A stretch of 64,000 bases of DNA from Nitrosopumilus sp. (GCA_965218785.1 OZ244650.1:1344001-1408000), one strand, 5' to 3'. Positions 8,625 through 36,003 are shown, counted from the first letter of the stretch. A program made the numbers and translations. The notes: generated by a model not told the origin, from the letters alone.

Positions 8625-10169
<1,545 letters not shown>

Positions 10170-16657: not shown

Positions 16658-17737
16658 ATGAAAACAAAAGGACAGCAGTCCATGGATGAAGTCATGACTT
16701 TTGACGTAATCCGTGGCATTCAGGCAAAAAGGGAATATTATATCACCATGTGTTCATTTTCCACCATTAGTAAACACTTTGGGTATAACAATGATCCACG
16801 AATAACACCAGAACAAAAAGCACAGCGTAAGTTAAGAGAAGCAAGAATTCCCAAGATTGCCGGTTACATTTTGTCTAATCCAGATAATTATGTCATTTCC
16901 CCCATTACAGTTTCAATTGGAACCCGGTTACAATTTGATCCTTATCCAGGATTGGGTTCAGACAGCAAGGCGGGAAAACTGTTGGTTCCACTTGATGCAG
17001 TAATTTTAGTTAATGATGGACAGCATCGTTGTGCTGCGATAAAATCAGCGTACGAAGATAATCCAAACATTGGAAGTGAGAGAGTGCCAGTGGTAATGTT
17101 TGAAGACCGAGGACTCAAACGCAGTCAGCAGTTATTTGCGGATCTTAACCAGCATGCAGTAAAGCCTACAAAATCACTTAGTCTGTTGTATGATCATAGG
17201 GATACGTTTGCACGGTTTATAGTAACTTTAGTCAATGATTTAGACATATTTTATGGCAGGACTGAATTGGAACGTACCAACATAGGAAGACGCTCCAGTA
17301 AATTTTTCACATTGAATGGTGTAGCAGAAGCCACACGACATCTTTTAAAACTTAAAACAAAATCACTGGATGATGCAAAACAGAAACTTTCCGCAGAATA
17401 TTGGGATCATGTTTCAAAAAATATTCCTGAATGGAATCTTTTAATGCAAAATAAGATAAAACCAGAAAATTTAAGAAGTGAATATATTCATGCACATACA
17501 AACGTGCTAAGTGCGTTGGGAATGGTAGGTTATGTACTTACAAAAAATTCTGATTGGAAGGAGATACTGAAAGGGTTGCAGAAAATTAACTGGAGAAAAG
17601 ACAATCCAATTTGGGAAGATAAAGTTGTAATGGACGGTAAGATGTTAAAAAACAGACTGGGGATAAAGAGGGCTGCAAATGAGATATTATCATTACTGGG
17701 AGTAGATGCTACCGTAGATGGAGATGCCAGAACATGA
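16658..17737 (+). CDS. dndB: DNA sulfur modification protein DndB (DGQHR domain)
   Basis: GIQAKREYY, KAQRKL, NDGQHR, QQLFADLN, LYDHRD; TATA-like ttatttataa ~25 nt upstream of ATG 16658. Confidence 0.93.
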   Translation: MKTKGQQSMDEVMTFDVIRGIQAKREYYITMCSFSTISKHFGYNNDPRITPEQKAQRKLREARIPKIAGYILSNPDNYVISPITVSIGTRLQFDPYPGLGSDSKAGKLLVPLDAVILVNDGQHRCAAIKSAYEDNPNIGSERVPVVMFEDRGLKRSQQLFADLNQHAVKPTKSLSLLYDHRDTFARFIVTLVNDLDIFYGRTELERTNIGRRSSKFFTLNGVAEATRHLLKLKTKSLDDAKQKLSAEYWDHVSKNIPEWNLLMQNKIKPENLRSEYIHAHTNVLSALGMVGYVLTKNSDWKEILKGLQKINWRKDNPIWEDKVVMDGKMLKNRLGIKRAANEILSLLGVDATVDGDART

Positions 17738-19242
17738 CAGTGGAATCAATCTTCCAATCCCGAACCCTTGATAGCGTTTATGATGAGATAAGGCAGGTAT
17801 ATCTTGGAGACAACAGACCGTGGATTCTAGGATTCAGCGGGGGTAAGGATTCTACATGCATGGTTCAGCTTATCTGGAATGCACTATCCAAACTACCTGC
17901 TGAAAAACTGCACAAAAACATATTCGTAATATCCTCAGACACGCTTGTGGAATCCCCAAAGGTCGTAGAGCAGATAACCAACACGCTGGATATGATGGAA
18001 AAAGCCGCACAAGAATCACATCTTCCAATATCCACCAATCTGATAAGGCCTGTAACAGAGGATACATTCTGGGTCTGTCTTTTAGGCAAGGGCTTTCCTG
18101 CCCCCAGCAACCTGTTTAGATGGTGTACTGAACGCCTGAAGATAAGAAATGCAGATCGGTTCATCCAGGACAAAGTCTCTGAATATGGCGAGGCAATAGT
18201 GGTACTTGGAACAAGAAAAGACGAGAGCGGCTCCAGACACCAACTGATGAACCTGTATGCGATAAAAAACAGCCTGCTTTCACGACACTCAAAATTTGCA
18301 CAGACATACGTCTATACTCCACTACGTGACTTTACGGCAGAAGATGTATGGAATTATCTATTACAGCAGAAAAATCCGTGGGGTGCAAACAATCGGGATC
18401 TTTTGGCATTATACCAGAACGCAAACGCATCAGAATGTCCATTGGTGGTAGACAGCAGTACACCATCATGTGGAAATAGCAGGTTTGGATGTTGGACATG
18501 TACCGTAGTCAGCGAGGATACATCTTTGCGAAACACCATTGAAAACGGGGAGGAATGGATGGAACCGTTGCTTGAACTGCGCGAGGAGCTAAAAGAGACC
18601 CAGGATCCTGCAAAAAGAAAAGTTGTCAGATCCCTCAAGCGCAGAACGGGGCAGATGAAACTTATCGATGATGCACGCAAGAAGAAATTTGATGAAAGAA
18701 TCAGCGAATCCAAAATGGAGCTGAGGAAAAAGGGTGATGACGGCAGTGATGATCCATACTCCAAACTGGTTCCTGGGCCGTACACGTTGGAGTTCTGTCA
18801 GGAATTTCTTGAAAAACTGCTCAAGGCACAGAAAAAAGTCAGGCAAACCGGGCCGGATCCCAACATGATGCTAATTTTGGATGAGGAAATTCACGAGATC
18901 CAGAGAATATGGCGCATGGAGCGGGGTGACTGGAGAAATACAGCATACCAGATATATGAAAAGATACTCGGTGAGAAACTGGTTCTGCCTCAGGAGGATT
19001 TGGGAGGATTTGGCGTTATTGAGCAGGATGTGTTGGAGCAAATTTGTCATGAAAACAACGTTCCCACACTACTGGTTTCAAAACTGCTAAACGCAGAACA
19101 TGAATTGCAGGGAATGACGCAGCATTCCAAAATCTATCCCAAAATAAACAAGATATTGTCCGAGGAATGGAGAGAAGACCTAGATGATATAGTGCGCGAC
19201 CTTGAAGGTCAGAAACACGTGAAGAAGGAGTTTGGTGGCTGA
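17734..19242 (+). CDS. dndC: DNA phosphorothioation sulfurtransferase DndC (PAPS-reductase family)
   Basis: PWILGFSGGKDS, DTLVESP, RWCTERLKI, ECPLVVD, CGNSRFGCWTCT, PGPY; 4-nt overlap with dndB. Confidence 0.96.
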   Translation: MTVESIFQSRTLDSVYDEIRQVYLGDNRPWILGFSGGKDSTCMVQLIWNALSKLPAEKLHKNIFVISSDTLVESPKVVEQITNTLDMMEKAAQESHLPISTNLIRPVTEDTFWVCLLGKGFPAPSNLFRWCTERLKIRNADRFIQDKVSEYGEAIVVLGTRKDESGSRHQLMNLYAIKNSLLSRHSKFAQTYVYTPLRDFTAEDVWNYLLQQKNPWGANNRDLLALYQNANASECPLVVDSSTPSCGNSRFGCWTCTVVSEDTSLRNTIENGEEWMEPLLELREELKETQDPAKRKVVRSLKRRTGQMKLIDDARKKKFDERISESKMELRKKGDDGSDDPYSKLVPGPYTLEFCQEFLEKLLKAQKKVRQTGPDPNMMLILDEEIHEIQRIWRMERGDWRNTAYQIYEKILGEKLVLPQEDLGGFGVIEQDVLEQICHENNVPTLLVSKLLNAEHELQGMTQHSKIYPKINKILSEEWREDLDDIVRDLEGQKHVKKEFGG

Positions 19243-21284
19243 TGATCATAACAAAGGTGATACTGCAGGATTACGGTGTGTACAGGGGCATAAACGAGTT
19301 TGATTTTACCTGTTCTGAAAAAAGACCCATAGTACTAGTTGGAGGCACAAACGGTGCTGGCAAGACAACGCTTTTTGAATCTATAATGCTGGGTCTTTAT
19401 GGAATTGCCACCATGGGAAAGCGCAGCACGAAAAAATCGTATGAGCAGTTTATCGGGCAAAAGATTCATCGATATCTCAAAAGCTCGACATCTGCAGACC
19501 ATGCATCAGTTATAGTACAGTTTAAATTTTTTCACAGTGGACGTGTTACCGAATACCGTGTAGAGCGGTCATGGATGAGGCAGGATGGCGGCATAGACGA
19601 ACAACTAAACATAAAAAAACGCAGTTCGGATCAGGAAAAATTTGATCCGTTAGGTGCCATAGAAAAATCCCACTGGCAGTCCTTTATCGAAGATTTAATT
19701 CCAAGAGGAATAGTAAAACTGTTCTTTTTTGACGGAGAAAAGGTGGTAAAGATTGCAAAAGAAGGTACCGAAGATATCACAATCCGGGAATCATTCAAGT
19801 CGCTTCTTGGAATCGAGGTGGTATCACAACTTTATACGGATCTACAGGTAAATCTGACAAGGAATCTTACCGGTAATGCAAAAACATTACAACAGGATTT
19901 TGAAAGATATAATGCAGAAAAAAACGAGATCATGGAAAGTGTAAAAAGACTCAAGTGGAGACTGGCACAAAAACAGACAGAGATGGATTCGTTGCATATG
20001 GAGATAGACAACATGGAAATCAAGATCTCAAAAATTGGGGGCATGTTTGCCAGCAAACGAGACGAGTCCAAGGGCAAACTTGCCACACAAAAACTAGCAT
20101 ATGAAAACATACAACAGAGACTCATCGAGTCATGCTCAGGCGTACTCCCATTTGCAATCATACCTGCAGAGCTTGAAATACTGCACAAACAAATTCAGAC
20201 AGACGAGTCAATTCAGCAGCAGACTGCAGGCAAAGAATTTTTTAATTCCAGACTCAAAAAGATGAAATCCAAGGTAGAGACACAGGAATTCTGGATTGAT
20301 TCAGGGCTTGATGCAGATGAAATAGACAAGGCAATCTCAGTAGCATCTGCAGTGATAAAAAAAGAGATGGTAAATAATGACTCATCTGACAAACCTGTAT
20401 TTGACCTTTCATCTGAGCAGGCAGGCAGAATCACCGAAATAATACGACAGGCAAATACTGTTGCCTTGCAGAAAATCAGCGCGGATACAAAGAAGATAAT
20501 AGAGGTCGGCGAAGAGGTTACTCTTCTTGAAACATCAATTGCAAACGCCCCTGATGATGATGAGATAGGATCACTGATGTCCAGCATGGGGAATCTGCAC
20601 ACGCAGGAAGGAGCACTACAAGCAGAGATGGATCACATAGAGGAAAAGATAGCAAGCAATATGTCCCTTAGGGGTCATCTTGACTCCAAATTACGTGGCA
20701 TAGTGTCACAGATTTACAAAACTGAAAAATCAGCGCAGCATGTGGAAATGACGCAAAAAATCCAGAAGGTTTTAGAGATATTCATAGACAAACTAAAGAT
20801 AAAAAAGATTCACTTGCTAGAGACGTATCTGCTAGATGCCATCAAGACACTAATGCACAAAAAAGAATTCATCGAGGCGGTTCAAGTCGACCCGGACACG
20901 TTTGAGGTTACACTATTTAGAAAAAACGGCGACCAATTCCCAAAGAATCTTTTATCTGAAGGAGAAAAACAGATGTTTTCAATGGCAGTTCTGTGGGCAC
21001 TGGCAAAGACATCCGGAAGACCACTGCCATTTATGATAGACACGCCGCTTGCAAGACTTGATGAGGCACACCGAACAAATATTGTTGAAAAATTCTTTCC
21101 TACAGCATCACATCAAACTTTGATATTCTCGACTGATACTGAGATAAAAAATTCTGACTATAAGAAACTGGAATCATGTCTTATGCGATCATATGCTATG
21201 GAGTACCTTGACGAGGAGGGTGCCACGCACAAGCATGATGGATATTTTTGGAACAAGGAGGGTAAGCGAATTGTTGCGATTTAA
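19242..21284 (+). CDS. dndD: DNA sulfur modification ATPase DndD (SMC-like)
   Basis: Walker A GTNGAGKT, LFFFDGEK, coiled coil, LSEGEKQ, IDTPLARLD, STDTEI. Confidence 0.95.
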   Translation: MIITKVILQDYGVYRGINEFDFTCSEKRPIVLVGGTNGAGKTTLFESIMLGLYGIATMGKRSTKKSYEQFIGQKIHRYLKSSTSADHASVIVQFKFFHSGRVTEYRVERSWMRQDGGIDEQLNIKKRSSDQEKFDPLGAIEKSHWQSFIEDLIPRGIVKLFFFDGEKVVKIAKEGTEDITIRESFKSLLGIEVVSQLYTDLQVNLTRNLTGNAKTLQQDFERYNAEKNEIMESVKRLKWRLAQKQTEMDSLHMEIDNMEIKISKIGGMFASKRDESKGKLATQKLAYENIQQRLIESCSGVLPFAIIPAELEILHKQIQTDESIQQQTAGKEFFNSRLKKMKSKVETQEFWIDSGLDADEIDKAISVASAVIKKEMVNNDSSDKPVFDLSSEQAGRITEIIRQANTVALQKISADTKKIIEVGEEVTLLETSIANAPDDDEIGSLMSSMGNLHTQEGALQAEMDHIEEKIASNMSLRGHLDSKLRGIVSQIYKTEKSAQHVEMTQKIQKVLEIFIDKLKIKKIHLLETYLLDAIKTLMHKKEFIEAVQVDPDTFEVTLFRKNGDQFPKNLLSEGEKQMFSMAVLWALAKTSGRPLPFMIDTPLARLDEAHRTNIVEKFFPTASHQTLIFSTDTEIKNSDYKKLESCLMRSYAMEYLDEEGATHKHDGYFWNKEGKRIVAI

Positions 21285-21648
21285 CAGGCTCAGGATGAGC
21301 TACCGCTCACAGAATCTGCTGGCACACCTAAAATCCAGAACGGGTATTACGCCAAACGTCATGGGTAGATTTGCAATATGTTTATCCCTCAACGACCCAT
21401 CACCTCCAAATCCTGATGAATTTGATGAAAAGGGTTCTGAGATACATGCGTCCGTATTGTTTGGCGAGTATGAGGATATCTTTATGACACTAATGGTTCA
21501 GAGGTTACGACGGGAGGGGTATGATCCGGAGAAATATCTCAACAAGATGGTACGTGCCCACTTTAACCGTGGAACCATAGCGCTGTTTGCAAGAGTCCAT
21601 GATATCTCTGACTTTGAGAGGGTCATACAACAGGAGAGACAGAATTGA
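21271..21648 (+). CDS. dndE: DNA sulfur modification protein DndE
   Basis: LKSRTGITPNVMGRFAICLSL, LFGEY, RAHFNRG; aggaggg SD upstream of TTG 21271. Confidence 0.92.
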   Translation: MLRFNRLRMSYRSQNLLAHLKSRTGITPNVMGRFAICLSLNDPSPPNPDEFDEKGSEIHASVLFGEYEDIFMTLMVQRLRREGYDPEKYLNKMVRAHFNRGTIALFARVHDISDFERVIQQERQN

Positions 21649-22838
21649 TGAACAAGATGGTCCAAGACAAGGATCTGTCCAATTCCAGATTACCGATATA
21701 CCTTGATCACAACGCAACCACACCACTTGATTCCAATGTGCTAGCTGAGATGATGCCGTACTTTACAGAAAAATTTGGAAATGCATCAAGTACGGACCAC
21801 AGACACGGACATGATGCTTCTGAGGCAGTTGAATCTGCAAGAGAGGATATAGCAAATACAATAAACGCAAAGCCCGGAGAGATAGTATTTACTGCGGGTG
21901 CCACAGAGTCTGACAATATGGCACTTGTCGGCGTCATGAACAGGTATGCAGACAAGGGAGATCATCTGATTACCTGTGTTACAGAACACAAGGCGGTACT
22001 AGATGTCGCAAGATATCTTGAGAGTGTGGGGAAAAAAGTCACGTATCTTCCAGTAGATGAGCTTGGACACGTCAATCTAGATGAGCTTCATGATGCAGTT
22101 ACAGACAAGACCGTAATGATATCAATCATGACTGCAAACAATGAGATTGGAACCATTGCAGACGTTGAATCCATTGGAAAGATAGCACATGAAAACGACA
22201 TATTGTTTCACACCGATGCGGCGCAGGCAGTAGGGCATATTCCAATGGATGTACAAAAGATGAATATTGATCTGATGTCGTTTTCAGCACACAAGATGTA
22301 CGGTCCCAAAGGAATCGGTGCGTTGTATGTAAGTGGGATAAAGCCGCGGGTACAGCTGGATCCGATCGTAAGAGGGGGTGGACAGGAGCACAATATGCGC
22401 TCTGGGACACTCAACGTTCCCGGAATAGTGGGATTTGGAAAGGCAGCCTCCATTGCAGCGACTATGATGTATCAAAATAATCAAGATCAAAAACAATTGG
22501 CAGTAACCATGCTTAAATTACTAGAAGAGAACGGCTGGCTACTCAATGGAGACCGGAACAACAGACTTTCAGGAAACCTCAATGTATGCCATCCTGGAAT
22601 AGATGGCAAGGCCATAATTAATTCAGTCTCAAAACAGATTGCAATATCTGCAGGATCTGCTTGTACGACCCAGAATGTGGAGCCATCCCACGTGATAACT
22701 GCCCTTGGATACGGTGAGGAGAGAGCATATTCCTCAATCAGGATAGGGATAGGCAGGTACAACGTAAATGATGAGACAGAATTTGCTGCAGGGGGGATAA
22801 TTGAGGCAGTCAGGACTATTAAGAGATTCAATGGGTGA
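21645..22838 (+). CDS. dndA: Cysteine desulfurase (DndA/IscS)
   Basis: YLDHNATTP, GATES, HTDAAQ, SAHKMYGPKG (PLP Lys), SAGSACT catalytic Cys; coupled to dndE. Confidence 0.93.
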   Translation: MMNKMVQDKDLSNSRLPIYLDHNATTPLDSNVLAEMMPYFTEKFGNASSTDHRHGHDASEAVESAREDIANTINAKPGEIVFTAGATESDNMALVGVMNRYADKGDHLITCVTEHKAVLDVARYLESVGKKVTYLPVDELGHVNLDELHDAVTDKTVMISIMTANNEIGTIADVESIGKIAHENDILFHTDAAQAVGHIPMDVQKMNIDLMSFSAHKMYGPKGIGALYVSGIKPRVQLDPIVRGGGQEHNMRSGTLNVPGIVGFGKAASIAATMMYQNNQDQKQLAVTMLKLLEENGWLLNGDRNNRLSGNLNVCHPGIDGKAIINSVSKQIAISAGSACTTQNVEPSHVITALGYGEERAYSSIRIGIGRYNVNDETEFAAGGIIEAVRTIKRFNG

Positions 22839-22963
22839 CGGATATGACAAATGACTATGTTCAAACTCAAGGTTGGGTAGAAATAATGCTGATGAAGTTG
22901 TCTTTCTTGTAAATACTCTAAAATCCCGAATCAAGATGATTTCAGGCATAGACGTAACGTAGA

Positions 22964-22974
22964 ACTTTTAAAGG
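22964..22974 (+). promoter_or_regulatory. Putative TATA box of the ParB operon
   Basis: ttttaaagg ~25 nt upstream of ATG 22995, typical spacing for a leaderless archaeal transcript. Confidence 0.45.
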
Positions 22975-22994
22975 TATTAACACCAATTGTAAAC

Positions 22995-23813
22995 ATGTCT
23001 AAAATTCAAGACAGCATAAATATTCCATTAGAACAGATAACTCTTAGCAAAAATCAAGCTAGACAGAGGGATACAAAAGTAGATGAAGACGATGATCTGG
23101 TTCATAGTATTAGAAAAAACGGATTACTTTACCCTATCCTTGTTAAGAAAATATCTGACAATGAATATGAGGTTATAAGCGGACAGAGGCGATTTCGAGC
23201 ACATGAAATCCTGAAGAAACCCACGATTAAAGCATCTATCCATGCAGATGAACTTGACGATTTTGAATCAAAAAAACTCTCCCTAGCCGAAAATATTGCA
23301 CGTAAAGATATGAAACATGCAGATTATGTAGATGTCATAACAGTTTTTCTGAATAGATATGGCAAGACTAAAATCGTTGCAGAAGAGCTTGGATTGTCTG
23401 TTTCAACGGTGAGAAAATATCTGAATATATCTAGATTACCAGAAAAAATTCAAGAAGCAGTAAATAAAAAAGAAATCGGACTTAATAATGCAATGAAAGC
23501 ACTAGATATATTGGGAGGTGACGAAACAACTGTGGATGAAAACAAGCTTTATGATGTAGCTGTAGCAATGAAAGGATTGACTCCACCTGTAAAAAATAAA
23601 CTTAAAGGAATTATAGAGAATGAGCCAGATACCACACCAAAAGATGCTGTAGAAAAAGCTAAAAAACGAGTTACAAAAAATCTCATTGAAACAGAAGTAA
23701 CAGATGATATGATAACCCGAATAGACAAATTCAAAGATATTGAAGGCATAGAAAAAACTGATGATGCAGCTGCAGAACTAATAGATTTGGGACTTATATC
23801 TAAAGATCTATAA
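22995..23813 (+). CDS. ParB/Spo0J-family protein (orphan, no parA)
   Basis: QARQ, SIRKNGLLYPILV, ISGQRRFRA (GxRR), ENIAR, HTH VAEELGLSVSTVRKYL. Confidence 0.9.
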   Translation: MSKIQDSINIPLEQITLSKNQARQRDTKVDEDDDLVHSIRKNGLLYPILVKKISDNEYEVISGQRRFRAHEILKKPTIKASIHADELDDFESKKLSLAENIARKDMKHADYVDVITVFLNRYGKTKIVAEELGLSVSTVRKYLNISRLPEKIQEAVNKKEIGLNNAMKALDILGGDETTVDENKLYDVAVAMKGLTPPVKNKLKGIIENEPDTTPKDAVEKAKKRVTKNLIETEVTDDMITRIDKFKDIEGIEKTDDAAAELIDLGLISKDL

Positions 23814-24550
23814 TGCAATTACTTGACGATCCGTATAGATTGGCCAAACTGCTTGCTAGTATTAATGTGCCTGGAGCTGACCGACCTCTCAGTCCCTTAG
23901 AAGTTTCAAATGAAATTTACACACTACGTTCTGAGTTAGATGATGATGCAGAGCTTGTAAAAAGATTACCGATATCCAGGGACATAATACAGCAGTTTTT
24001 GGCTCTGCAAAACTTGCCTGAAGAGATACAAGACATCATAGTCTGGGGAGAGTCAAAAAACGATACGGGATCCATTGGTTTTAGCGTAGCTAGCCGGCTT
24101 GCACAATTTGAGAACAAAGAAGACATTAACAAATTAGCCAGTGCGATTATTGATATTCCAAGACCCGTTATAAAGGAAGAAATCAAGGCAATACTGAGCC
24201 TAAAAAAACAGAACAAAAACAAACCCATCGAAGAATGCATCTCTGAAGTTCTCAAAGTTATGCGTCCTTTGATAATACGACATTTCTTGTTCATAAGTGG
24301 GTTGCAATCAGGCATAATAAACAAGTTAAAATTATCTGTAAAATCAAATCAAAATATACATGGACTTGCAATAGAAATATTACAAACGGTGTTCCCAACA
24401 GACTCTGTAAAAAGTGCAAAAGTTTTTGATGATTGTATCAGATTATCTATTAGTAAAAATGGAAGAGATTTCATTGATAAATACTCCGAATCTCACAACT
24501 TGTTAAGAAAAGATATAATAAATCATATGTTTGAATCAAAAGGATTCTAA
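23813..24550 (+). CDS. Hypothetical protein resembling the ParB HTH/central domain without the N-terminal CTPase
   Basis: RPLSPLEVS...ELVKRLPISRDIIQQFLALQNLPEEIQDII parallels the ParB HTH region; TAATG coupling to ParB. Confidence 0.6.
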   Translation: MQLLDDPYRLAKLLASINVPGADRPLSPLEVSNEIYTLRSELDDDAELVKRLPISRDIIQQFLALQNLPEEIQDIIVWGESKNDTGSIGFSVASRLAQFENKEDINKLASAIIDIPRPVIKEEIKAILSLKKQNKNKPIEECISEVLKVMRPLIIRHFLFISGLQSGIINKLKLSVKSNQNIHGLAIEILQTVFPTDSVKSAKVFDDCIRLSISKNGRDFIDKYSESHNLLRKDIINHMFESKGF

Positions 24551-24552
24551 AA

Positions 24553-25593
24553 TTGAACACAGTGGATCTTTTTTCAGAAGTAGATATTACAACGAAAGGT
24601 GCTATCTGTTTGGGAAATTCACTTGTATGTGATGGATTTGCGTCTGGATATAAGGCAGCCGCATTTACACACATACACCATGATCACATAGCAAACAGTT
24701 TTGAAACATGCATGCATAATTATCCCACATATACATCAAAGATTACGCGTGAACTGTTAGAAAAAGTGACAGACGACATATACGACAAAAAAACTCAATT
24801 TCATACTTTGGATTATGGTGTCAGAACACTCATCCCAGATACGAGTGACTATCTTCAATTACTGGAATCAAGTCACATGCTTGGGTCTAGTCAAATTCTT
24901 CTTCATACACATAACAAATTAAAAATTCTGTATTCTGGTGACATATCCCCCACAGATACAGCACCAGAATGTGACATTCTTGTGGTCGATTCCACGCATG
25001 GCGTACCGCAATTGGACAAGAAGATAGACAGTGCTAGCCTTAATCGCCGACTGATAGACAAGGTGGTGGAAAGTATTTCTGAACAAAAGCCAGTCTGCAT
25101 CCATGCCCACAGGGGAAAGCTTCAGTCTCTCATGCACCTTCTATCGGAGTGTTCTGACATTCCAGATGACGTGAAATTTCTCTCCCAACTCATCGACAAG
25201 CGTGTGTCTGAGACATACAACAGGCATGGTTACACGACAAAGGAAATAATCGACATCGATACATACGAAGGGGAGGAAATAACAGACAATGGCTACCCCT
25301 GGATAGAATTTCGGACATCACTTGTACCAACTAAAAATGAAAAAGAACACAAACTCTCAAGCATATATGTAGTAGGTAATTTTGGCAAAACCACGATAAG
25401 ACATGACAAAAACGATGGAGGGTTTCATATGGCATCCGACGAGCATGCCGAATTTACCGATTTGTTAAAATATGTAAAGAATGCTAAACCAAAGGTAGTG
25501 GTGACTGATAATTATCGTTCTAGTTTTGGAAAACAACTTGCCAATGAAATTCAATCCAAATTGGGCATTCCTGCAAAATCTTTACCTGAATAG
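24553..25593 (+). CDS. Metallo-beta-lactamase/beta-CASP nuclease
   Basis: THIHHDH, SSHMLGS, YSGD, VVDSTHG, DEHAEF. Confidence 0.85.
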   Translation: MNTVDLFSEVDITTKGAICLGNSLVCDGFASGYKAAAFTHIHHDHIANSFETCMHNYPTYTSKITRELLEKVTDDIYDKKTQFHTLDYGVRTLIPDTSDYLQLLESSHMLGSSQILLHTHNKLKILYSGDISPTDTAPECDILVVDSTHGVPQLDKKIDSASLNRRLIDKVVESISEQKPVCIHAHRGKLQSLMHLLSECSDIPDDVKFLSQLIDKRVSETYNRHGYTTKEIIDIDTYEGEEITDNGYPWIEFRTSLVPTKNEKEHKLSSIYVVGNFGKTTIRHDKNDGGFHMASDEHAEFTDLLKYVKNAKPKVVVTDNYRSSFGKQLANEIQSKLGIPAKSLPE

Positions 25594-25595
25594 AC

Positions 25596-26945
25596 ATGTT
25601 TCATAAATCTAATGTTTTTGAGAAGATATTGGAAAAATTAGCAGGTATTTCCATAGTAATAAACAATGATCTATTGGAAAATAAGAACGGGAAATATGTG
25701 AAAACCGTCCGCACTCCTATTTTCAGGAGAGGTAATCTTGCACAAATTGGGAAAGAAGATCGTATCGACCATATGAGGTTGCAATACGATATGAAAGAAA
25801 TACTTCAAAAACATGCAAGTGGAAAGCCACAACTAAAAGCCGCCAAATCTCTCTTCATCCACACGCTAGAGAAGGAAATGAAATCATTCAATTTACAACG
25901 TCAAGATGAATTAGATGAATTGGCAACCAATCATTTGTTGGGTTTTATTATGCATGTTTTTAAAAAATATAATAACAAACCGGTATTGAATTTTAAAAAA
26001 CTATTGCGTGATTTTGAAGATCATGCTCATGACAAGATATTTCCATATTTTCACGTTACTCCAGTGTTCAACGTAAAGGGTGATTTTAAGACAACTTTTA
26101 TTTCAGACGAGATGCACATTAGAAAAATAACAAATGATGAATATTCAAAAATAGTTAATCTTCAAAACATTCCGATCAAAGATATTCCATACCATCACAA
26201 ACGCCTGGAATACGTACTAGTGCATAAAGTCATTCCAAAAAAACCACGAAGTGTTCTGCCTGATGTGATAAAAGACTATGAGAGTGTTCTGAATCAATTG
26301 AAATTATTCACAGAAGGCAATCCCCAGTTTGGCAACATCTACAAGCTAGAGTTTGACAAGCAATATACCGGCAAATTGAATTTTTTTGAATCCGGCTATG
26401 AAAAACCATCATCTCCAAAAACCATTATGTTAACTCCTAGGAAAATCAAAGATTTTGTAAAGTTTTATGCCGATTTGTCTGAAAAATGCAATGAAATGAC
26501 ATTTTTGTACACATCCATAAAGCGTTTTGGAATGGCATATCACCATCGGAGTGAGTCTGATAAAATTGTGGATTATGTGATTTCTTTGGAGGCACTGTTG
26601 GTTTTAGGACCTGGGGAATCCACACAAAAACTGTCTCATAGAGTGTCTGCGTTATATGGAAAGACTGATCATGAAAAATTATGGATCTGGGAGTTTATGA
26701 AAGAAGCATACAAATTCCGAAGTGGTATTTTACATGTTGGGCAGGAACGATCCTTCAAAGTGGATTCACAAAAAATAGAACTGGAGGCAGTCTCAGAAAA
26801 ACTTCATACCATAACTAAAACGTCAATTCATCGGTTTAGCAAACTTCTCGATGTGTATAAAAAACAAGACAGAATTATCAATGAATTGGACAAATCTATG
26901 TATGATCGTGGAATCTTGTCACACATGAAAAAATTATGGAATTGA
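25596..26945 (+). CDS. HEPN-domain protein (ApeA/Apea-HEPN-like)
   Basis: C-terminal DYVISLEALL ... AYKFRSGILHVG (Rx4H). Confidence 0.8.
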   Translation: MFHKSNVFEKILEKLAGISIVINNDLLENKNGKYVKTVRTPIFRRGNLAQIGKEDRIDHMRLQYDMKEILQKHASGKPQLKAAKSLFIHTLEKEMKSFNLQRQDELDELATNHLLGFIMHVFKKYNNKPVLNFKKLLRDFEDHAHDKIFPYFHVTPVFNVKGDFKTTFISDEMHIRKITNDEYSKIVNLQNIPIKDIPYHHKRLEYVLVHKVIPKKPRSVLPDVIKDYESVLNQLKLFTEGNPQFGNIYKLEFDKQYTGKLNFFESGYEKPSSPKTIMLTPRKIKDFVKFYADLSEKCNEMTFLYTSIKRFGMAYHHRSESDKIVDYVISLEALLVLGPGESTQKLSHRVSALYGKTDHEKLWIWEFMKEAYKFRSGILHVGQERSFKVDSQKIELEAVSEKLHTITKTSIHRFSKLLDVYKKQDRIINELDKSMYDRGILSHMKKLWN

Positions 26946-27164
26946 CTATATGTTCAATTTATTGTGAACAGTATTGCCAAGATGGATTAAAATCCCATGT
27001 TTTGTGGCCATTCTGCTGTACAAAAAATAGGTCGTACTAATTTCAGGCATACTACAAAGGAATACTGTCTGAATCGATCAAGAAAACGAATGATAAAAAG
27101 ATTCTAGACATCACAGATATAGCGACGATCAAAAGTTTCTGAACATTTTTGCAGGGTTTCTAAA

Positions 27165-27445
27165 AATATAATTGGCAATATCAAGCTTGAACCTTGTTAT
27201 CCTAGAGTATTGAGATATGGTCTTGTTCATTATTGTAAACATTGTATAATATTCCAAGACCAACAATGAATGTTACTTATTTTCCAGTATTGTTCCATCA
27301 TGTTAAGCCACGGAGATCCTTTTGGCAGCTGGATCAACCAGACATTGTGATTTTCCAGTAAATTCCTTGACTTTTTTTTTGATTTGTGGACTGATACCCT
27401 GTCAAGAATTAATCTAATCTTACCATCCAGCATAGTCCAGAATCC
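27165..27445 (-). mobile_element. IS630-family transposase remnant
   Basis: LILDRVSVHKSK...LPKGSPWLNMMEQYWK (DDE_3 C-terminal motif), then frameshifted ...RITRFKLDIANY. Confidence 0.75.
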
Positions 27446-27466
27446 AAAATCATGAGATGGATATTT

Positions 27467-27898
27467 TTACTTTTTCAAATATTTCCGAAATTCATTTTCC
27501 AATGATTCTAACGGTTCATCACTTTCATCATATAACATTTGGAGATATTTGATTCCACCATTTGAATATTCTTCAGCGTTTGTGAGAATCTGATCAGGTT
27601 CCCATAATATAGATACGCCTGCATCGGGATGTGTTTTAAAATAAAGTGAAATCATTAACCATCTTTCTTCTTTTGTAAATACTGCTGTAGGAATTGTATT
27701 ACTTGGTTTTGTAATTTTAGTGGGAGGAATATCCTTCTTATATCCCAGAGCCATTGCAGTTATGAATATATTTGTCATGTTTTTGTTATAAAAAAACGAT
27801 TTTGTTACTTTGATCATCTTTTTATAAAAATCAGAATATTCCTCATCATAACTAGTGTATTTTTTGAATTTAAATTCATACCGTTCATCTTGTTCCAT
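27467..27898 (-). CDS. pbeD: PbeD-like / Dnd-associated small protein
   Basis: IFITAMALGY, AEEYSNGGIKYL pattern; last gene of the helicase-ATPase module. Confidence 0.65.
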   Translation of the reverse strand: MEQDERYEFKFKKYTSYDEEYSDFYKKMIKVTKSFFYNKNMTNIFITAMALGYKKDIPPTKITKPSNTIPTAVFTKEERWLMISLYFKTHPDAGVSILWEPDQILTNAEEYSNGGIKYLQMLYDESDEPLESLENEFRKYLKK

Positions 27899-27902
27899 TC
27901 TA

Positions 27903-29990
27903 TTATGCCTCCTTTACTATTGTTCTTGATGATGTATCAGAAATTTTTTCCATTTCCAATCTCATGGCTTTTCCTATTCTTCCATTCTTCTGTAATATTT
28001 TTTGAATTGACTCTATAGGTTTACCTGTTTTGGTATCTTTTATTATTTCGGCATTGTACTCGGTGTTTGTTACAAGTAATGTGATCTGCGTGTCTGGAAG
28101 ATATATGGGGAGATCCTTTGCAGCAGATACTCTTTCTTGTCCAGATACTTTGCCAAATGGAGAATCAATTATCATTGGATAATTCGTATCAGTTACTTCT
28201 CTTACGGCTGCAATATAGCTTAAAGCAAGATATAGAGTCTGACCTGCTGATAATGTCTTTAAATTATTAACCTGTTCGGTATCAATAACTCTAATTTTAT
28301 AATTCTCATCAATTTCAATTCTGTCAATTTGCCAGTTTCTTGTAATTAGTTTTTTAAATATCTCTTCTGTTCTGTTTTGAACTTTTTCTCGAATATCTGT
28401 TAGTAATTCTTCTCTAATCTGATTCAAAATACAATGTGCTTTATCCGCCAAGTCCTTTTTTTGAATCCATTTTTTTGCAGCATCAGTTGTACCAGTGACA
28501 CGGGATATCTTTGCATCCAAATCTTGTATTTCTGATTGTAATGCTTGTTTTTGAGCTTCTTTTAGAGTCAATTCTTGATTAAGTGTTTCTTTTGCATGTC
28601 TCATACTGTCTAGATTAGTTGCAGTTTTTCTAATATCTTTCTCATCATATTCTTTTAGTTTTTCAATTGTGCCATTAACTTTTTCTTTAGCCTCTCGGTA
28701 CGCCAGCCCATATTCTTCCTCTTTTTGACGTAATTCATCTAATTTTTCAAGTATCTCTTTTGAATTCATCGTTTCGATCATGTTGGTTAAGGTCTCTTTT
28801 CCTTCATAGGAGATATTTATCAATGGTGAATTCTTTACTTTATCTCTTAATTCTTCTAAATAATTCATTTCATTACTGGTTTCATTGAATTTTGTTCCAC
28901 AGATACATTCTTTGTGTTTTATCAATTCATCTACAAAGAATTTTTTAATTGGGGGTGGAGTTTCTCCCTTAATCTCTGATTCTTTTAATAGGTTGAATGT
29001 ATGTTCTGTCGCATCCTTCAAGAGTGTTTGTGCAAAATTATCTGTAATGTATGTCATTCGATGATCTTTTTGTCCTACTACGAACTTGTCAAATTGTTCA
29101 CGATTAATTTTTTCAGAATGTAGCTGTCCTTGTAAAATTTCATATGCTTTCAATGGATGTGCTGCCATGGTCATTTCAAGCTGTTTTATATTCTGTTCAT
29201 ATTCTGTCATATTACTATGTCCTATACCTAGACCTTTCTCAATTTTTTCCAGTGTGGTTGTTTTTGATTCTAATTTATCTTGATCAATTCTAGTAGTTGT
29301 ACCAGATGATTTTGCAGCTCTGCTAGAATATAGTTTCAATATTGTTTTCCAGTGATCAATTGATCTTTCTGTAACTGGCAATCCAGAAACTTTTTCAATC
29401 CCATCCTTGATTTTTCCTGAATTTTCATCTTTAAAGAATGAATCTAACATTTCTCCATTAAAAATTACAAAACTCGCTAATTTTTCTGGTAAAAATGTAG
29501 TGACTTTGTCTAGAAATCTAGATGAATCATCTGTAGAATCCCAACTTCCATCACTACTTCTTTGTTTAAACGACTGTGTGATGAATGTGGAAAAACCTGA
29601 ATCGATTTGTCCGGCGGCATCTGAATCAAAGTCTTTCTCTCGTTCATCAGTTGTTCTCTTACAATCCAAATTTCTTGTTATTTGATATTTTGGTCCTTGA
29701 TCATCGTTAATTGTTATTGTAACTGAGCTCTCACAAGCATCACCTACCTTAGTAGCATTTAGAATATTCTGGTTTGGAATGGGTTTACCTTCTCCTTCAT
29801 TTAGAAATTCTTCTTTCTCATAAAGACACCAATACATGGCGTTAATCAAGGATGTCTTTCCTGTGGAATTATTTCCTTCAATAATCGTAAACGATTTTTT
29901 TTGATCCTGGGAAAAATCTATTAAAACATCTTCATATTGTCTAAAGTTTTTTAATTCAACATTCTTTATTGTTAGATTTTTTCCAGCCAT
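27903..29990 (-). CDS. pbeC: PbeC-like Rad50/SMC-type ATPase with zinc hook
   Basis: LKNFRQY, Walker A GNNSTGKT, FNGEML, central CICG hook, LSAGQ, IIDSPFG. Confidence 0.75.
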   Translation of the reverse strand: MAGKNLTIKNVELKNFRQYEDVLIDFSQDQKKSFTIIEGNNSTGKTSLINAMYWCLYEKEEFLNEGEGKPIPNQNILNATKVGDACESSVTITINDDQGPKYQITRNLDCKRTTDEREKDFDSDAAGQIDSGFSTFITQSFKQRSSDGSWDSTDDSSRFLDKVTTFLPEKLASFVIFNGEMLDSFFKDENSGKIKDGIEKVSGLPVTERSIDHWKTILKLYSSRAAKSSGTTTRIDQDKLESKTTTLEKIEKGLGIGHSNMTEYEQNIKQLEMTMAAHPLKAYEILQGQLHSEKINREQFDKFVVGQKDHRMTYITDNFAQTLLKDATEHTFNLLKESEIKGETPPPIKKFFVDELIKHKECICGTKFNETSNEMNYLEELRDKVKNSPLINISYEGKETLTNMIETMNSKEILEKLDELRQKEEEYGLAYREAKEKVNGTIEKLKEYDEKDIRKTATNLDSMRHAKETLNQELTLKEAQKQALQSEIQDLDAKISRVTGTTDAAKKWIQKKDLADKAHCILNQIREELLTDIREKVQNRTEEIFKKLITRNWQIDRIEIDENYKIRVIDTEQVNNLKTLSAGQTLYLALSYIAAVREVTDTNYPMIIDSPFGKVSGQERVSAAKDLPIYLPDTQITLLVTNTEYNAEIIKDTKTGKPIESIQKILQKNGRIGKAMRLEMEKISDTSSRTIVKEA

Positions 29991-30179
29991 TTACTCACCG
30001 TATTTATCAACAAAATCCGAGACTCTTCGGTCATATTCTTTTGTATATTCTTTTTCACCTAAAGAACTCTGCATTTTTTCATAATCAAGTAAATTAAGTA
30101 ATAAATTCTTAAACTCTTCTGATTCATCCAATTCTTCAATTTTTGAAATAATTAATGGATTAATGGTAAAAATACCCAA
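29991..30179 (-). CDS. pbeB: PbeB-like small acidic protein
   Basis: 62 aa; stop abuts the ATPase start; position between helicase and ATPase. Confidence 0.6.
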   Translation of the reverse strand: MGIFTINPLIISKIEELDESEEFKNLLLNLLDYEKMQSSLGEKEYTKEYDRRVSDFVDKYGE

Positions 30180-30336
30180 TTTCTTTTCTTGGTTCTATCC
30201 ATATTTTAGGATTTACCAGTGACTGGCAGTAATTCCATACACGATGTGGTATGGTCTGATGATTATTTGATGGTATGATCATCAAAAATAATTATTCCTA
30301 GATGTGTTCATAAAGATTTCAAAATTCTCATTTTTA

Positions 30337-32472
30337 TCAATCCATCCCACACAATTTTTTAATCTCATCAATTTTTGCAGAACCGTAATCTGGGTTTAAT
30401 GATATTTTGGACATCTCCTCATGCCTCTGAAGTTCTTTTTTTATAATATTTTTTTCAGATTCTGCATAAATAGGATCGGGTTTTACATTCAAGTGAGGAA
30501 TTACAAAAATATCATGTATGGTCGCATATTTTTTTCTTGTTCCATCAGGATATGTTCCAGCCCAGGTTCTAAGTATTCTTCCCCGTCTTTGTATGAATTG
30601 TTTCGGATTGCCGGTACTTGCCAACATTATGGCAGTATGTAATGGGGGAATATCTACACCCTCATCAAGTATGTTTATTGCTATGGCACAATTCAAACTG
30701 CCTGTTTGTATCTGTTCTAGTATCTTTTCTATTTCTTTCAAGTCCGTTAGTTCTGATTTTATTATACTATTTGGGATTGGAATTTGATTTAAAATTTCTT
30801 GAGCTTGATTTGCCTGTGATTTTATATTTCCTGTTTTAGATGGAGCACAATATATTATTCCATATTTTAATTTTTTATTTTTAGAAATTATTTCTTTAAA
30901 CGCATCGAGTTTTTTCTCTGCATTTTTTATTATATTTGCTCTTTTGTTTAAAAGAATTGCAAGTAATTCCTTATTTTGCTCATGAGGTTTTTTATGCAAT
31001 TCTGGCTGTAATTTTTTTGTAATTATGTGGTATTCCTCTAGTTCATCTGCGGTTAGATCAACATAATAGGGATAATAATAGTATGGAACAAGTATTTTGT
31101 TTTCTATTGCATCTTTTATGTCCATTTTAAATACAGTGGATTCTTTATGACAATTATTGCAATTAACTATGGGTTTAAAATAATCCGCTAGGAATTGGGA
31201 GCCCTCTTCATCAAAATATCTCTGAGGGGTTGCACTTAATCCCAATCTAAATTGATATTCTTCTAATAATGAATTTTGAGTATTGGCAGCACCGGCAGTA
31301 TGTACCTCGTCTGCAATCAATACGGATTGTCTTGAATTTTTTTTAACTATATCAGTAAATTCTTTTTTTGAAAATGTGGCATATGTTGTAATGATTATAG
31401 TCACATCATTGTTTGTTTTTATTTTAAAATTATGATTGTTGATAATTTTAGTTAAATTTGCCCTCCAATCTTTTTTTCCTTTTAGCGTAGTAATGACCTC
31501 AAAATCCCATTTTTTAAATTCTTTATACCATTGTGAAACCAGATTTTTGGTGGGGCAGGCAACAACTACAAACATCTCTGGATAATTTTTTTGAATCTCT
31601 TTGAGGCTTCCTATTGCAGTAAATGTTTTGCCTGTACCTGTGGCCATCTCCAATATGCCTCTGCATCCATGATCAATCCAACTATCTTTTGCGTCTTTTT
31701 GATATTTTCGCAATCTTGGCATGTGTTTTAGATTTAATTCATCAATTGATTTTGGGGCAAATTCTAGTATGTGATCTTTGAGGGCTTGGGGCAAATCTAT
31801 TATTTCAAATTCATTCTCTTTCTCATCTGATTCTAAATAATCTGGGTCATCCCAATAATTTGTAAATTTTTTAAAATCTCTATCTACATATTCCTCATGT
31901 ATCCAACGCTTGTGTATGGTAATGTCCGTATATTCATCTTCATTATCATGACTAGGTTTGATCACCCCATTAAATGAAATTGAATTTCCTTCTTCGTCAT
32001 GAAAAATACCTACGCTCAAATCTGCCTTGCCTGAATTTCGTAGTAATTCCCCGTCTAGGATATCTCCATTTGAGTTCTTGTGGATGATCAACTTTAATTC
32101 TAATTTTGGTGGATCTTGTGCCAACATCCATGCAAGTGCCCTTATGTGATCTTTTTCAAATTTTTCTTTAATCTCCTCAAAACTTTTTATCCAGTTGTCC
32201 TTAATTTTTTCTTCTCTGTTTGTAACACCTTTTTTAATTGCTGCAATATCTTCACTCGTAAATAATGATGATAGAACCAGTTTTAATTCACCGTTGTTCT
32301 TTAGAAATTCACTTAATCCCTCAGCACATAAAGCCAGATTTTTTGATGTAAAAAATCCCCCATATCTATAATATGTATTGGAATTTAAAAAACATGGAAC
32401 AAAAAAATCATTATACGGATCACTTGATACAGATGAATAACCAGATAATATTGGGAATGATTTTAAATTCAA
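30337..32472 (-). CDS. pbeA: PbeA-like SF2 (DEAD/DEAH) helicase with N-terminal PLD-like domain
   Basis: LRKYQ, MATGTGKT, DEVH, GLSATP, LDEGVDIP, QRRGRILR; N-terminal DFFVP...GFFTS. Confidence 0.8.
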   Translation of the reverse strand: MNLKSFPILSGYSSVSSDPYNDFFVPCFLNSNTYYRYGGFFTSKNLALCAEGLSEFLKNNGELKLVLSSLFTSEDIAAIKKGVTNREEKIKDNWIKSFEEIKEKFEKDHIRALAWMLAQDPPKLELKLIIHKNSNGDILDGELLRNSGKADLSVGIFHDEEGNSISFNGVIKPSHDNEDEYTDITIHKRWIHEEYVDRDFKKFTNYWDDPDYLESDEKENEFEIIDLPQALKDHILEFAPKSIDELNLKHMPRLRKYQKDAKDSWIDHGCRGILEMATGTGKTFTAIGSLKEIQKNYPEMFVVVACPTKNLVSQWYKEFKKWDFEVITTLKGKKDWRANLTKIINNHNFKIKTNNDVTIIITTYATFSKKEFTDIVKKNSRQSVLIADEVHTAGAANTQNSLLEEYQFRLGLSATPQRYFDEEGSQFLADYFKPIVNCNNCHKESTVFKMDIKDAIENKILVPYYYYPYYVDLTADELEEYHIITKKLQPELHKKPHEQNKELLAILLNKRANIIKNAEKKLDAFKEIISKNKKLKYGIIYCAPSKTGNIKSQANQAQEILNQIPIPNSIIKSELTDLKEIEKILEQIQTGSLNCAIAINILDEGVDIPPLHTAIMLASTGNPKQFIQRRGRILRTWAGTYPDGTRKKYATIHDIFVIPHLNVKPDPIYAESEKNIIKKELQRHEEMSKISLNPDYGSAKIDEIKKLCGMD

Positions 32473-33386
32473 ATAAAATCTTCCTTTATTTTTGAATTAT
32501 GAAATTTGATATTCTTTGTGTCAAGATTATGTTTATCTTTAAAAAAAATCGTACCCAAATGATTACCTTTCAAATCTTCTATTTTATCAGGATTTTTTGG
32601 ATTAAATCTAATTATTCGGAAATCAAATTCAGTGTGATGGTTTGGACATAGTACCAGCATGTTATCAAAATCATCATCTCCATTGTCTGCCATTGGCCAG
32701 ACATGATGGATTTCGGAGTATCCTGGTTCTGCATATTCTGGAAATGAATAGCTACAAATCTGACATTTGTTGCCATATATTTTTTTTAATAATTTAGATT
32801 TTCCCGTATCTCGTATTCTTCTTAGTATGGTGGATTGTATTCTTTTTGGTTCTTTTTTCATACTTGATGGAATTATTTTTGTAATATCTATATTTTTGAA
32901 TTTAGGCACTGATATCCCAAGATACGATTCTATGGTATTGTATTTTTTACAAATTTTTTGAATAGATTTCTCCCTGAATTGGATCAGGCTAATTTTGTGC
33001 ATTTTTGGAATATCTGTATCAAATCCCATATCTGAATTTGTTTTTTTATATCCCAAATTTATTTTAAATATTTGGCTAAAATATACTGCTAGAAATTTAT
33101 CCTGATAAATTTTTTTATTCATATTTTTTGTTTGTATTTTCAGTTTCTTTGTCTTGTAGATTTTTCCTGCAACTGAATATTTGCCGTTAAAATAAAATAA
33201 TAACCATTCATCATTATTCATACAATTCCAAATTTTTAAATTTTTTTCTGATGATGAAAAGCTCCACATGAATGTAATATCAGAATCTGTTTTACTTTCC
33301 ACATCTGAGGTTTTGATTTTTTTGACAAATTCATTCATAAAGATTTCTTTTTGATCTCGTTCTATAGATGTTAGAAAAACTTGCAT
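32469..33386 (-). CDS. HNH endonuclease with N-terminal EVE/PUA-like domain
   Basis: CQIC, EIHHVWPM, NMLVLCPNHH; N-terminal W...W..M..DEWLLFY; TTGA overlap with pbeA start. Confidence 0.85.
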   Translation of the reverse strand: MQVFLTSIERDQKEIFMNEFVKKIKTSDVESKTDSDITFMWSFSSSEKNLKIWNCMNNDEWLLFYFNGKYSVAGKIYKTKKLKIQTKNMNKKIYQDKFLAVYFSQIFKINLGYKKTNSDMGFDTDIPKMHKISLIQFREKSIQKICKKYNTIESYLGISVPKFKNIDITKIIPSSMKKEPKRIQSTILRRIRDTGKSKLLKKIYGNKCQICSYSFPEYAEPGYSEIHHVWPMADNGDDDFDNMLVLCPNHHTEFDFRIIRFNPKNPDKIEDLKGNHLGTIFFKDKHNLDTKNIKFHNSKIKEDFI

Positions 33387-35920: not shown

Positions 35921-36003
35921 TCATCAAAATACACCAGAACCGTGCTACTACCAGTAACTGACATGCGGTACATTGGTTTTCAAACATGACAAATTATCAA
36001 CAA

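Follow-up and report, generated by a model that had tools for sequence, protein, structure and literature searches.

The archaeal DNA analysed here is a stretch of 64,000 nucleotides from Nitrosopumilus sp. (GCA_965218785.1 OZ244650.1:1344001-1408000), called the window below, in which four genes lie between a dndBCDEA operon for DNA phosphorothioation (PT) and a convergent pbe-type module. They encode a ParB-type protein (ParB1), a putative ParB paralogue (ParB2), a putative nuclease of the beta-CASP metallo-beta-lactamase (MBL) fold and a protein with a predicted HEPN domain (P4). Comparison with related loci revealed that the first three genes form a conserved triplet that is genomically tied to both Dnd-type and Ssp-type genes for PT modification, and that the HEPN gene is an optional fourth member.

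The four-gene cluster and its predicted proteins

Four open reading frames (ORFs) were called on the plus strand (Table 1). The first two overlap by one base within the sequence TAATG, and ORF2 and ORF3 as well as ORF3 and ORF4 are separated by gaps of 2 nt each, which agrees exactly with the four co-oriented genes described in the first-pass annotation of this DNA. The four genes probably form an operon. The TTTTAAA box that precedes ParB1 is compatible with an archaeal TATA box, a use that would imply a possible short-leader or leaderless ParB1 transcript, and AT-rich boxes are present at comparable distances upstream in some related loci. A sigma-70 scan returned 25 sites (19.4 ± 4.1 in shuffled sequence) and one terminator (2.4 in shuffled sequence), values that come from a bacterial model unsuited to archaea. 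The inverted repeats identified at 22800-27470 comprise three weak AT-rich pairs, with no convincing palindrome or parS candidate among them.

Judged by its sequence, ParB1 is a full-length ParB-type protein with an NTP-binding ParB fold and a domain of the helix-turn-helix (HTH) type. It matches Pfam ParB_N (5.6e-16, 58.8 bits against a cutoff of 26.3) and NCBIfam parB_part (1.1e-27 over residues 8-169, 97 bits against a cutoff of 58.45), and its score for Pfam HTH_ParB is slightly under the cutoff (21.7 against 22.6 bits). When a profile of 22 family members was compared with the PDB, the relatives recovered were Noc (7.4e-24), Spo0J/ParB and KorB (8.4e-10), and the alignment with Noc covers both the NTPase-fold and the HTH domains. 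The box II motif GQRR (G63, Q64, R65 and R66) is invariant in 22 of 22 sequences, in which E99 of an ENxxR-like box III is nearly invariant as well. Searches with PADLOC gave only partial or chance-level matches to ParB1 (PDC-M38A, 1.3e-6 over 78 residues; mad1).

ParB2 is recognised by HTH_ParB (Pfam, 3e-4) and by parB_part (positions 102-183, 8.6e-5), in both cases over the ParB HTH region only, and PADLOC contains no model for it. An hhalign comparison aligned it with residues 121-287 of ParB1 at a probability of 96.4% (E 1.4e-9). The predicted structure of ParB2 (pLDDT 91.4) was compared with solved folds by VIA-align, which returned a parS-bound ParB DNA-binding domain (Z 9.4), Spo0J (Z 8.8) and KorB (Z 7.5), and for the C-terminal 90 residues the tandem ribbon-helix-helix proteins AvtR (Z 6.7) and single-chain Arc (Z 6.1). 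The same C-terminal domain has a weak fold match to DndE (Z 4.9). ParB2 is predicted to be a paralogue of the DNA-binding half of ParB1 without its NTPase domain.

The product of ORF3 has the motifs expected of a beta-CASP nuclease with intact catalytic residues. No Pfam family matches it, and the profile of its family identifies aCPSF1 (1.4e-25), FttA (1.3e-21), Cas14 (1.9e-15), CPSF73, SNM1A (1.7e-12), Apollo and Artemis as relatives in the PDB. Across 31 sequences, H40, H42, H45, H108 and H298 are invariant and D44, D130 and D146 are at least 90% conserved; conservation covers the HxHxDH motif, the H and D further along, and motifs A and B of the beta-CASP family. The nuclease misses the cutoff of every curated NCBIfam family, the best match being Xnuc_lig_assoc (ligase-associated DNA-damage-response exonuclease; 1.1e-10), and its PADLOC match (0.0031) is partial or chance-level. 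A large protein collection contains 102 close-to-moderate homologues, two of which are assigned to Nitrosopumilus by their source. The position aligned with beta-CASP motif C is occupied by N or G, not by H or V, and an attempt to predict a preference for DNA or RNA from this motif was dropped for that reason.

For the C-terminal domain of P4, HEPN is the best call, because a fold match and an invariant Rx4H motif are taken together. The motif (R375-x4-H380) is present in 15 of 15 aligned sequences. In the predicted structure (pLDDT 83.1), residues 289-422 gave ten best VIA-align rows that are all HEPN or HEPN-like (Z 8.5-6.5), among them 4nqf (Z 8.5, rmsd 4.6, 117 aligned residues), sacsin (Z 7.9), ST0689 (Z 7.5) and Csm6 (Z 7.3), although these Z values are moderate for a helical domain. 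Foldseek found no match of the P4 model in the PDB at E<=0.001, and the P4 profile against PDB sequences gave only a chance-level integrin I-domain (E 0.04). None of 15 family members matched a curated HEPN Pfam family at E<=10, and 2 of 65 distant relatives had HEPN matches under the Pfam cutoff (HEPN_Apea, 5.6e-4; RiboL-PSP, 1e-3). No curated family of Pfam, PADLOC, NCBIfam or PHROG matches P4, and PADLOC has a model for none of 60 relatives. The protein nevertheless belongs to a large, unnamed superfamily, in which 5861 representatives pass E<=0.001 and 1142 pass E<=1e-10, and 14 homologues were identified in the large protein collection. For six of these 14, the longest contig has the same length as that of a nuclease homologue (11352, 18584, 23507, 3668, 1027051 and 91501), a hint that the two genes share contigs. 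Taken as a whole, profiles, motifs and the P4 model agree with the gene content given in the first-pass annotation, namely ParB, a ParB-HTH paralogue, a beta-CASP nuclease and a HEPN protein.

Pattern scans based on the P4 alignment found no relative in genome contigs (15 candidate stretches) or in viral contigs (11 stretches), and a search of the genomes of 61 relatives recovered only G000 and two weak HEPN-only matches. The metagenome contigs yielded one short locus, L001, in which the C-terminus of the nuclease is followed by P4 and then by the start of another MBL gene. This second MBL-like gene (L001:1958-2209) begins directly after P4, so the gene order of L001 may differ from that of the window.

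A conserved triplet beside phosphorothioation genes

Matches to the nuclease were collected from 401 family genomes, which include Nitrosopumilus, Cenarchaeum and Nitrosotalea. Stretches of 20 kb were taken around 20 matches, and more were added later; loci and genomes are referred to by L and G numbers, respectively. The ORFs of these loci were called de novo and searched with the window proteins and with profiles built from them. Wherever the flanks were usable (25 of 25 loci), the genes run ParB1, ParB2, nuclease along a single strand. Of the 75 junctions measured between genes, 71 overlap or span at most 16 nt, the four exceptions being overlaps of long ORFs or an unreliable ORF call. The partner in the triplet is always the same nuclease and never parA. 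P4 was identified after the nuclease in 14 loci, where it is intact in 12 and broken in two, and was not found in the other 11. One broken copy is interrupted by an inserted DDE transposase gene (L036:6894-9488), and the other is split into three ORFs, of which the HEPN piece retains RNDILH (L045:8113-9482). Both are compatible with P4 being a costly or dispensable accessory. An apparent 488-aa ORF after the nuclease of L041 is a wrong-frame artefact, rich in R, A, G and P, from high-GC DNA.

These results bear on several claims of the first-pass annotation. Joint travel of ParB and MBL genes, which it proposed as a check, was borne out, and the nuclease had no match in 72,556 plasmid records or 50,697 phage records. 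The proposed four-gene unit holds for its first three members and has to be relaxed for the HEPN gene. By contrast, the idea of a system that is independent of the PT locus and merely nested in it is contradicted by the neighbourhoods described below, in which the triplet is a conserved PT partner.

Genes for PT modification adjoin the triplet in 24 of the 25 loci, 22 of them with Dnd and two with Ssp. The dnd genes lie within ~13 kb and are usually the immediate neighbour; one of these loci, L037, was counted on the strength of a dndA at the contig end alone. In L064, the triplet is located between SspD (8.4e-108) and SspC-SspB-SspA (2.9e-296, 2.2e-89 and 1.2e-135; PADLOC), and in L051 it is ~7.7 kb from an SspA-SspB-SspC-SspD cluster. 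The same link is visible at the genome level. The nuclease occurs in 24 of the 401 genomes and DndC in 64, and DndC is present in 21 of the 24 nuclease-positive genomes versus 43 of the 377 others. The three DndC-negative carriers are G409, which has a truncated nuclease remnant without ParB genes, G157, where the nuclease match is at a contig edge of a 76%-complete genome, and G235, whose contig ends at dndA. In 19 of the 21 double-positive genomes, DndC and a copy of the nuclease are separated by 3.9-10.2 kb, a proximity expected by chance, in genomes of ~2 Mb, for roughly one gene per hundred.

Across 17 loci (136 pairs), the pairwise identity of the nuclease does not correlate with that of DndC (Spearman 0.08): the window and L071 share 28% identity in the nuclease and 83% in DndC, L033 and L049 share 27% and 94%, respectively, and L032 and L035 share 62% and 57%. 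The orientation of the triplet relative to dnd also varies and can be co-directional, convergent or divergent. Since, in addition, both Dnd and Ssp are involved and one bacterial case exists, the modules have been reshuffled yet stay adjacent, and their association has been re-made several times.

The bacterial case is an isolate of Ramlibacter rhizophilus, in which the triplet (7.1e-69, 1.7e-29 and 3.0e-63) is encoded in the same island as dndBCD and pbeA/C/D. It is so far isolated, as the Ramlibacter nuclease, searched against 401 Burkholderiales genomes, recovered no more than Ramlibacter itself and two weak beta-CASP matches. Matches in Rubritalea, Alphaproteobacteria and a metagenome-assembled genome of Myxococcota were left uncounted because they were on short contigs or weak. 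The 31-sequence nuclease alignment was too diverse for a pattern scan, and an alignment of 15 sequences was used instead; the nuclease count in genome contigs is an underestimate, because the single pattern of this alignment gave 16 loci only.

Of the 64 genomes with DndC, the triplet alone occurs in 13, PbeA alone in 19, both in eight and neither in 24, a distribution expected of alternative, interchangeable partners of dnd. Like the window, G408 has one dnd cluster with pbe on one flank and the triplet on the other.

Some loci contain a larger subtype of the module. In nine of them (L043, L042, L044, L045, L047, L049, L050, L063 and L071), genes for a helicase of the SNF2 family (Pfam 1.3e-36) and for a conserved protein of 266 aa without a family match lie directly upstream of ParB1, and a convergent DUF7669 protein is often located downstream. 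GmrSD-like and Mrr-like neighbours, and Gabija-like genes too, were identified at some loci. A GmrSD-type protein (L071:15283-17010, minus strand) is encoded ~3 kb from the triplet in the dnd-linked locus L071; it matches GmrSD_N (2.6e-35), GmrSD_C (5.2e-12) and PADLOC HEC-06 (7.5e-106) and has weak matches to the SspE N-domain. Because L071 has both, a classical PT-type effector of the ParB superfamily and the triplet can coexist.

The genomic island in the window

The position of the four genes between dndBCDEA and a convergent pbe module, as noted in the first-pass annotation, is confirmed by PADLOC, which places both (Table 1). Its E-values for the upstream operon are 1.7e-120 (DndB), 4.4e-184 (DndC), 2e-174 (DndD), 1.1e-42 (DndE) and 6.7e-155 (DndA). 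The pbe-type module is a second, already known dnd partner in the same island, and the HNH protein encoded at its far end may be an extra effector of that module. The absence of parA that had been reported was likewise reproduced, with no ParA-type family found among 59 pruned window ORFs of at least 90 aa (17 searched with a threshold of E<=0.01, the other 42 with E<=1e-6). Archaeal genes encoded in the window include those for CdvA, TFIIB, a family-B DNA polymerase and SUI1.

Table 1. Features of the four-gene locus and its neighbours (window positions unless a locus is named)
Feature	Position	Strand	Description and basis
ParB1 (ORF1)	22995-23813	+	Predicted N-terminal NTPase (CTPase-fold) domain, HTH DNA-binding domain, C-terminal strand-helix-helix tail
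ParB2 (ORF2)	23813-24550	+	Predicted ParB DNA-binding domain ~4-137; tandem ribbon-helix-helix-like domain ~154-245
Predicted beta-CASP MBL-fold nuclease (ORF3)	24553-25593	+	346 aa, TTG start; family profile and motifs
P4 (ORF4)	25596-26945	+	449 aa; predicted N-terminal alpha/beta domain ~1-290; C-terminal domain, HEPN as best call
TTTTAAA, candidate TATA box	22966-22972	+	22 nt before the ParB1 ATG; direct sequence reading
dndB-dndC-dndD-dndE-dndA, PT modification operon	16616-22838	+	PADLOC; Pfam agrees
Convergent pbe-type module	27467-33386	-	PADLOC and NCBIfam
PbeD-like gene	27467-27898	-	NCBIfam dnd_assoc_4 (TIGR04062) 1e-5, under cutoff
PbeC	27903-29990	-	PADLOC 6.6e-86
Small ORF in pbe module	29991-30179	-	
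PbeA	30337-32472	-	PADLOC 7.6e-176
HNH protein, 305 aa, overlapping PbeA start	32469-33386	-	PT-DNA_restrict (NF045808) 3.9e-7, far under cutoff
SNF2-family helicase (587 aa) and 266-aa protein	L043:5137-7651		

The module sits in an island of 30-46% GC within a core of 42-50% GC. The island is a mosaic, because GC content differs among the four genes (~35%), dnd (39-46%), pbe (30-33%) and the flanking housekeeping genes (42-50%). At its far low-GC edge (35216-37969), the window encodes conflict-type genes, namely an archaeal ATPase_2 fragment, a small HNH_2 protein and a Fic/DOC protein. Elsewhere, at 8625-10169 on the plus strand, is a 514-aa ORF full of collagen triple-helix repeats (Pfam Collagen, 6e-54), in a stretch of 61% GC that is unusual for the genome.

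Another gene pair recurs beside PT clusters. It consists of an MzaB-like ATPase (~585-600 aa; PADLOC MzaB, 3.9e-15) and an SF2 helicase (~535-565 aa; PbeA, 5e-24), and was identified in L078 (G000:C1:1446500-1466499), at L064:2794-6199 and at L077:17263-19038 together with L051:263-3667. The pair adjoins SspD in two genomes and is convergent with a second, divergent dndBCDEA of the window's genome, ~40-50 kb past the window end. It may be another PT partner module.

Proposed role and relation to known systems

We consider it probable, at roughly 0.6, that the four genes are a restriction-type effector module working with DNA phosphorothioation. The best reading of the analysis is that the module would work like SspE or DndI but from different protein families. 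SspE and DndI are described as carrying an N-terminal ParB-superfamily NTPase (DUF262, DGQQR) whose hydrolysis PT-DNA stimulates and which governs the HNH nuclease fused to it; this control licenses the nuclease in SspE and frees the protein from self DNA in DndI (PMC13251355, PMC11662687). Similar to these proteins, the triplet is encoded beside ssp or dnd modification genes and combines a nuclease with a G-Q-x-R type motif in a ParB-superfamily NTPase (DGQQR there, GQRR in ParB1). Different from them, ParB1 belongs to the canonical Noc/Spo0J type with an HTH instead of having DUF262, its nuclease partner is encoded separately and has a beta-CASP fold instead of being a fused DUF1524 HNH nickase, and an extra ParB paralogue without the NTPase is present. 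GmrSD_N and GmrSD_C (Pfam) and the PADLOC SspE model match none of the four proteins.

Because the two activities of SspE and DndI occur here on separate proteins, together with a second DNA-binding subunit, we propose a model of scanning, sensing and cutting. ParB1 with ParB2 would bind and scan DNA, and PT marks on host DNA would change the NTP cycle of ParB1 and lead to inactivation or release. Foreign DNA without marks would keep the complex engaged, and the beta-CASP nuclease would then cut. P4, where present, might be an add-on suicide or back-up RNase; HEPN genes are common in restriction-modification and DND loci according to the accessible part of an earlier survey (PMC3632139). Defence-type accessories found near the triplet are the HEPN protein, the SNF2 helicase and the GmrSD-like and Mrr-like neighbours. 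Prediction of a complex of ParB1, the nuclease and ParB2 gave a score of 0.00 in two runs, both of which were made without controls, and speaks neither for nor against such a complex.

A more specific version of this model is tentative, and we would not favour it on present evidence: ParB1 and ParB2 may form an NTP-gated clamp that slides on any DNA, PT may trigger hydrolysis and unloading, and a clamp persisting on unmarked DNA may license the nuclease, with the HEPN RNase as a fail-safe. If true, this would be the first ParB sliding clamp that acts in immunity and reads a DNA modification, and it would do so for both Dnd and Ssp marks. With the CTP-gated clamps ParB, Noc and KorB, ParB1 shares the HTH and an N-domain in which box II reads GxRR and box III resembles ENxxR. 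It differs from them in having neither ParA nor an identified parS, in its pairing with an NTPase-less paralogue and a nuclease, and in its tie to DNA modification genes instead of origins or plasmid backbones. The nucleotide need not be CTP, as the consulted sections of a 2025 survey of the ParB-CTPase fold also list binders of ATP and GTP (PMC12704722).

Several observations weigh against an effector that reads PT. The ParB1 N-domain contains no invariant tyrosine in the 22 sequences aligned, and a counterpart of the PT-sensing tyrosine of SspE and DndI was not found. The target of the nuclease may not be DNA, because its closest solved relatives include the RNA-acting aCPSF1/FttA, Cas14 and CPSF73, although the DNA-acting SNM1A, Apollo and Artemis are relatives too. 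At L034, no PT genes were identified within 10 kb; the genome holding this locus has dnd and pbe on another contig. The genomes are kin, so the counts overstate independence, and ORF calls are unreliable in the high-GC Cenarchaeum loci L041 and L048. Furthermore, dnd does not need the module, given the 24 of 64 DndC-positive genomes that have neither triplet nor PbeA, and a second restriction arm is not required in the window, which already has the pbe module.

It is unlikely, in our assessment, that the triplet acts on the modification side, with the ParB pair guiding or limiting Dnd or Ssp marking (through DndB-like regulation or KorB-like clamp repression) and the nuclease supplying or processing nicks for sulfur insertion. 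DndB, itself of ParB fold, regulates dnd according to the available portions of PMC4507180 and PMC10853773, KorB is a solved relative of ParB1 (8.4e-10), the C-terminal domain of ParB2 weakly resembles the DndE fold (Z 4.9), and the module adjoins both kinds of modification cluster. However, DndB is also present in most linked loci, 43 DndC-positive genomes are without the module, and the nuclease, of a processive-type family, retains its catalytic residues; an effector would suit the accessories (HEPN and SNF2) and the reshuffling of module and dnd better than a core cofactor would. Low probability is likewise given to a role in repair or maintenance of PT genomes, in which a ParB-targeted beta-CASP 5'-exonuclease would act at nicks or breaks at PT sites that arise from oxidative cleavage or stalled modification complexes. 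Such a role would account for the PT-gene linkage in the same way as an effector would, and it is consistent with the ligase-associated DNA-damage-response exonuclease as best NCBIfam match (1.1e-10, under cutoff) and with SNM1A, Apollo and Artemis as solved relatives, but the operon is without a ligase, Lhr or other repair partner, and a conflict system would better fit the island context, the patchy occurrence among dnd carriers and the HEPN and SNF2 additions.

Whether the link with PT could be a by-product of island clustering was weighed as well. A stand-alone defence system, with a ParB sensor and a nuclease independent of PT, would agree with the other defence genes of the low-GC island, with the GmrSD-like, Mrr-like and Gabija-like neighbours and with the L034 triplet. 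We regard it as quite improbable: generic clustering would not yield such specificity, in which 24 of 25 loci adjoin PT genes of two machineries, usually as the immediate neighbour, and DndC accompanies the nuclease in 21 of 24 carrier genomes versus 43 of 377 others. The resemblance of ParB1 to chromosomal and plasmid ParB/Noc proteins, to which it is closest, and its matches to PHROG ParB-like families might suggest a remnant partition or maintenance cassette of a dnd-carrying mobile element, with ParB in segregation. This is very improbable in view of the ParA-free window (59 ORFs of at least 90 aa), the constant nuclease partner in place of parA, the lack of nuclease matches in the plasmid and phage records and the lack of P4 matches in viral contigs.

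The effector module that we favour has no named counterpart in the resources searched. PADLOC-DB v2 contains no model for the four-gene set, and full-text literature searches yielded no description of a ParB and metallo-beta-lactamase/CPSF module with phosphorothioation, in agreement with the first-pass annotation, which could not match the genes to a named defence system. Its overall interpretation as a sensor-effector system is partly supported: it stands in gene content, joint travel of the genes, absence of parA from the window and lack of a named match, and is revised as to the four-gene unit and the independence from PT. The sensing step that it suggested, a clamp responding to unmodified DNA or to NTP depletion, would be a possible mechanism. 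The nucleases listed in a reappraisal of Dnd neighbourhoods from 2024 are of the HKD, HNH, REase, URI, HEPN and PIN kinds, and the terms 'lactamase' and 'CASP' are absent from the main text of that paper as available, supplementary neighbourhood tables aside (PMC10853773). The accessible text of the 2025 ParB-CTPase fold survey makes no mention of such a module (PMC12704722), and thaumarchaeal genome papers, in the portions available, note dndA-E only (PMC7848895, PMC6790972, PMC12780485).

Other known systems share single aspects with the module. PbeABCD and DndFGH are also multi-gene modules beside dndBCDE(A) and exchangeable between loci, but they have no protein family in common with the triplet: an SF2 helicase and an SMC-like ATPase occur in Pbe, large proteins with ATPase and nuclease roles make up DndFGH, and the PADLOC Pbe and Dnd models match neighbouring genes and none of the four proteins. 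No ParA adjoins the triplet in the 25 loci, different from ParABS. The nuclease has the fold and all metal-binding motifs of beta-CASP nucleases (aCPSF1/FttA, Cas14, SNM1A/Apollo/Artemis and the ligase-associated exonuclease), but is small (346 aa) and lacks KH or other extra domains; among these, Cas14 of type VII CRISPR provides an earlier example of an immune effector with a beta-CASP fold in prokaryotes. P4 is similar in size to ApeA-like HEPN proteins and, like them, combines an N-terminal domain with a C-terminal Rx4H HEPN. Among named Atlas clusters, those closest to it are annotated with HEPN_Apea (score 0.89), which is no more than a lead, but no member of the P4 family reaches the Pfam cutoff (0 of 15 and 0 of 65), PADLOC gives no match, and P4 is operonic with the triplet.

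The triplet is thus probably a new attack arm of PT self-marking defence and a further member of the PT-coupled effector modules. PT systems are often without a known restriction partner, as in the 24 of 64 genomes mentioned above, and the triplet would widen the known set of partners, which comprises DndFGH, PbeABCD, SspE, SspFGH and DndI. For work on ParB CTPases, it would suggest that the clamp may serve in immunity. The module is small, with three or four genes, and has obvious motifs for point mutants (GQRR, HxHxDH and Rx4H). In addition, the module would account for some of the defences of ammonia-oxidising archaea, organisms that abound in marine waters and sponges and about whose protection against viruses little is known.

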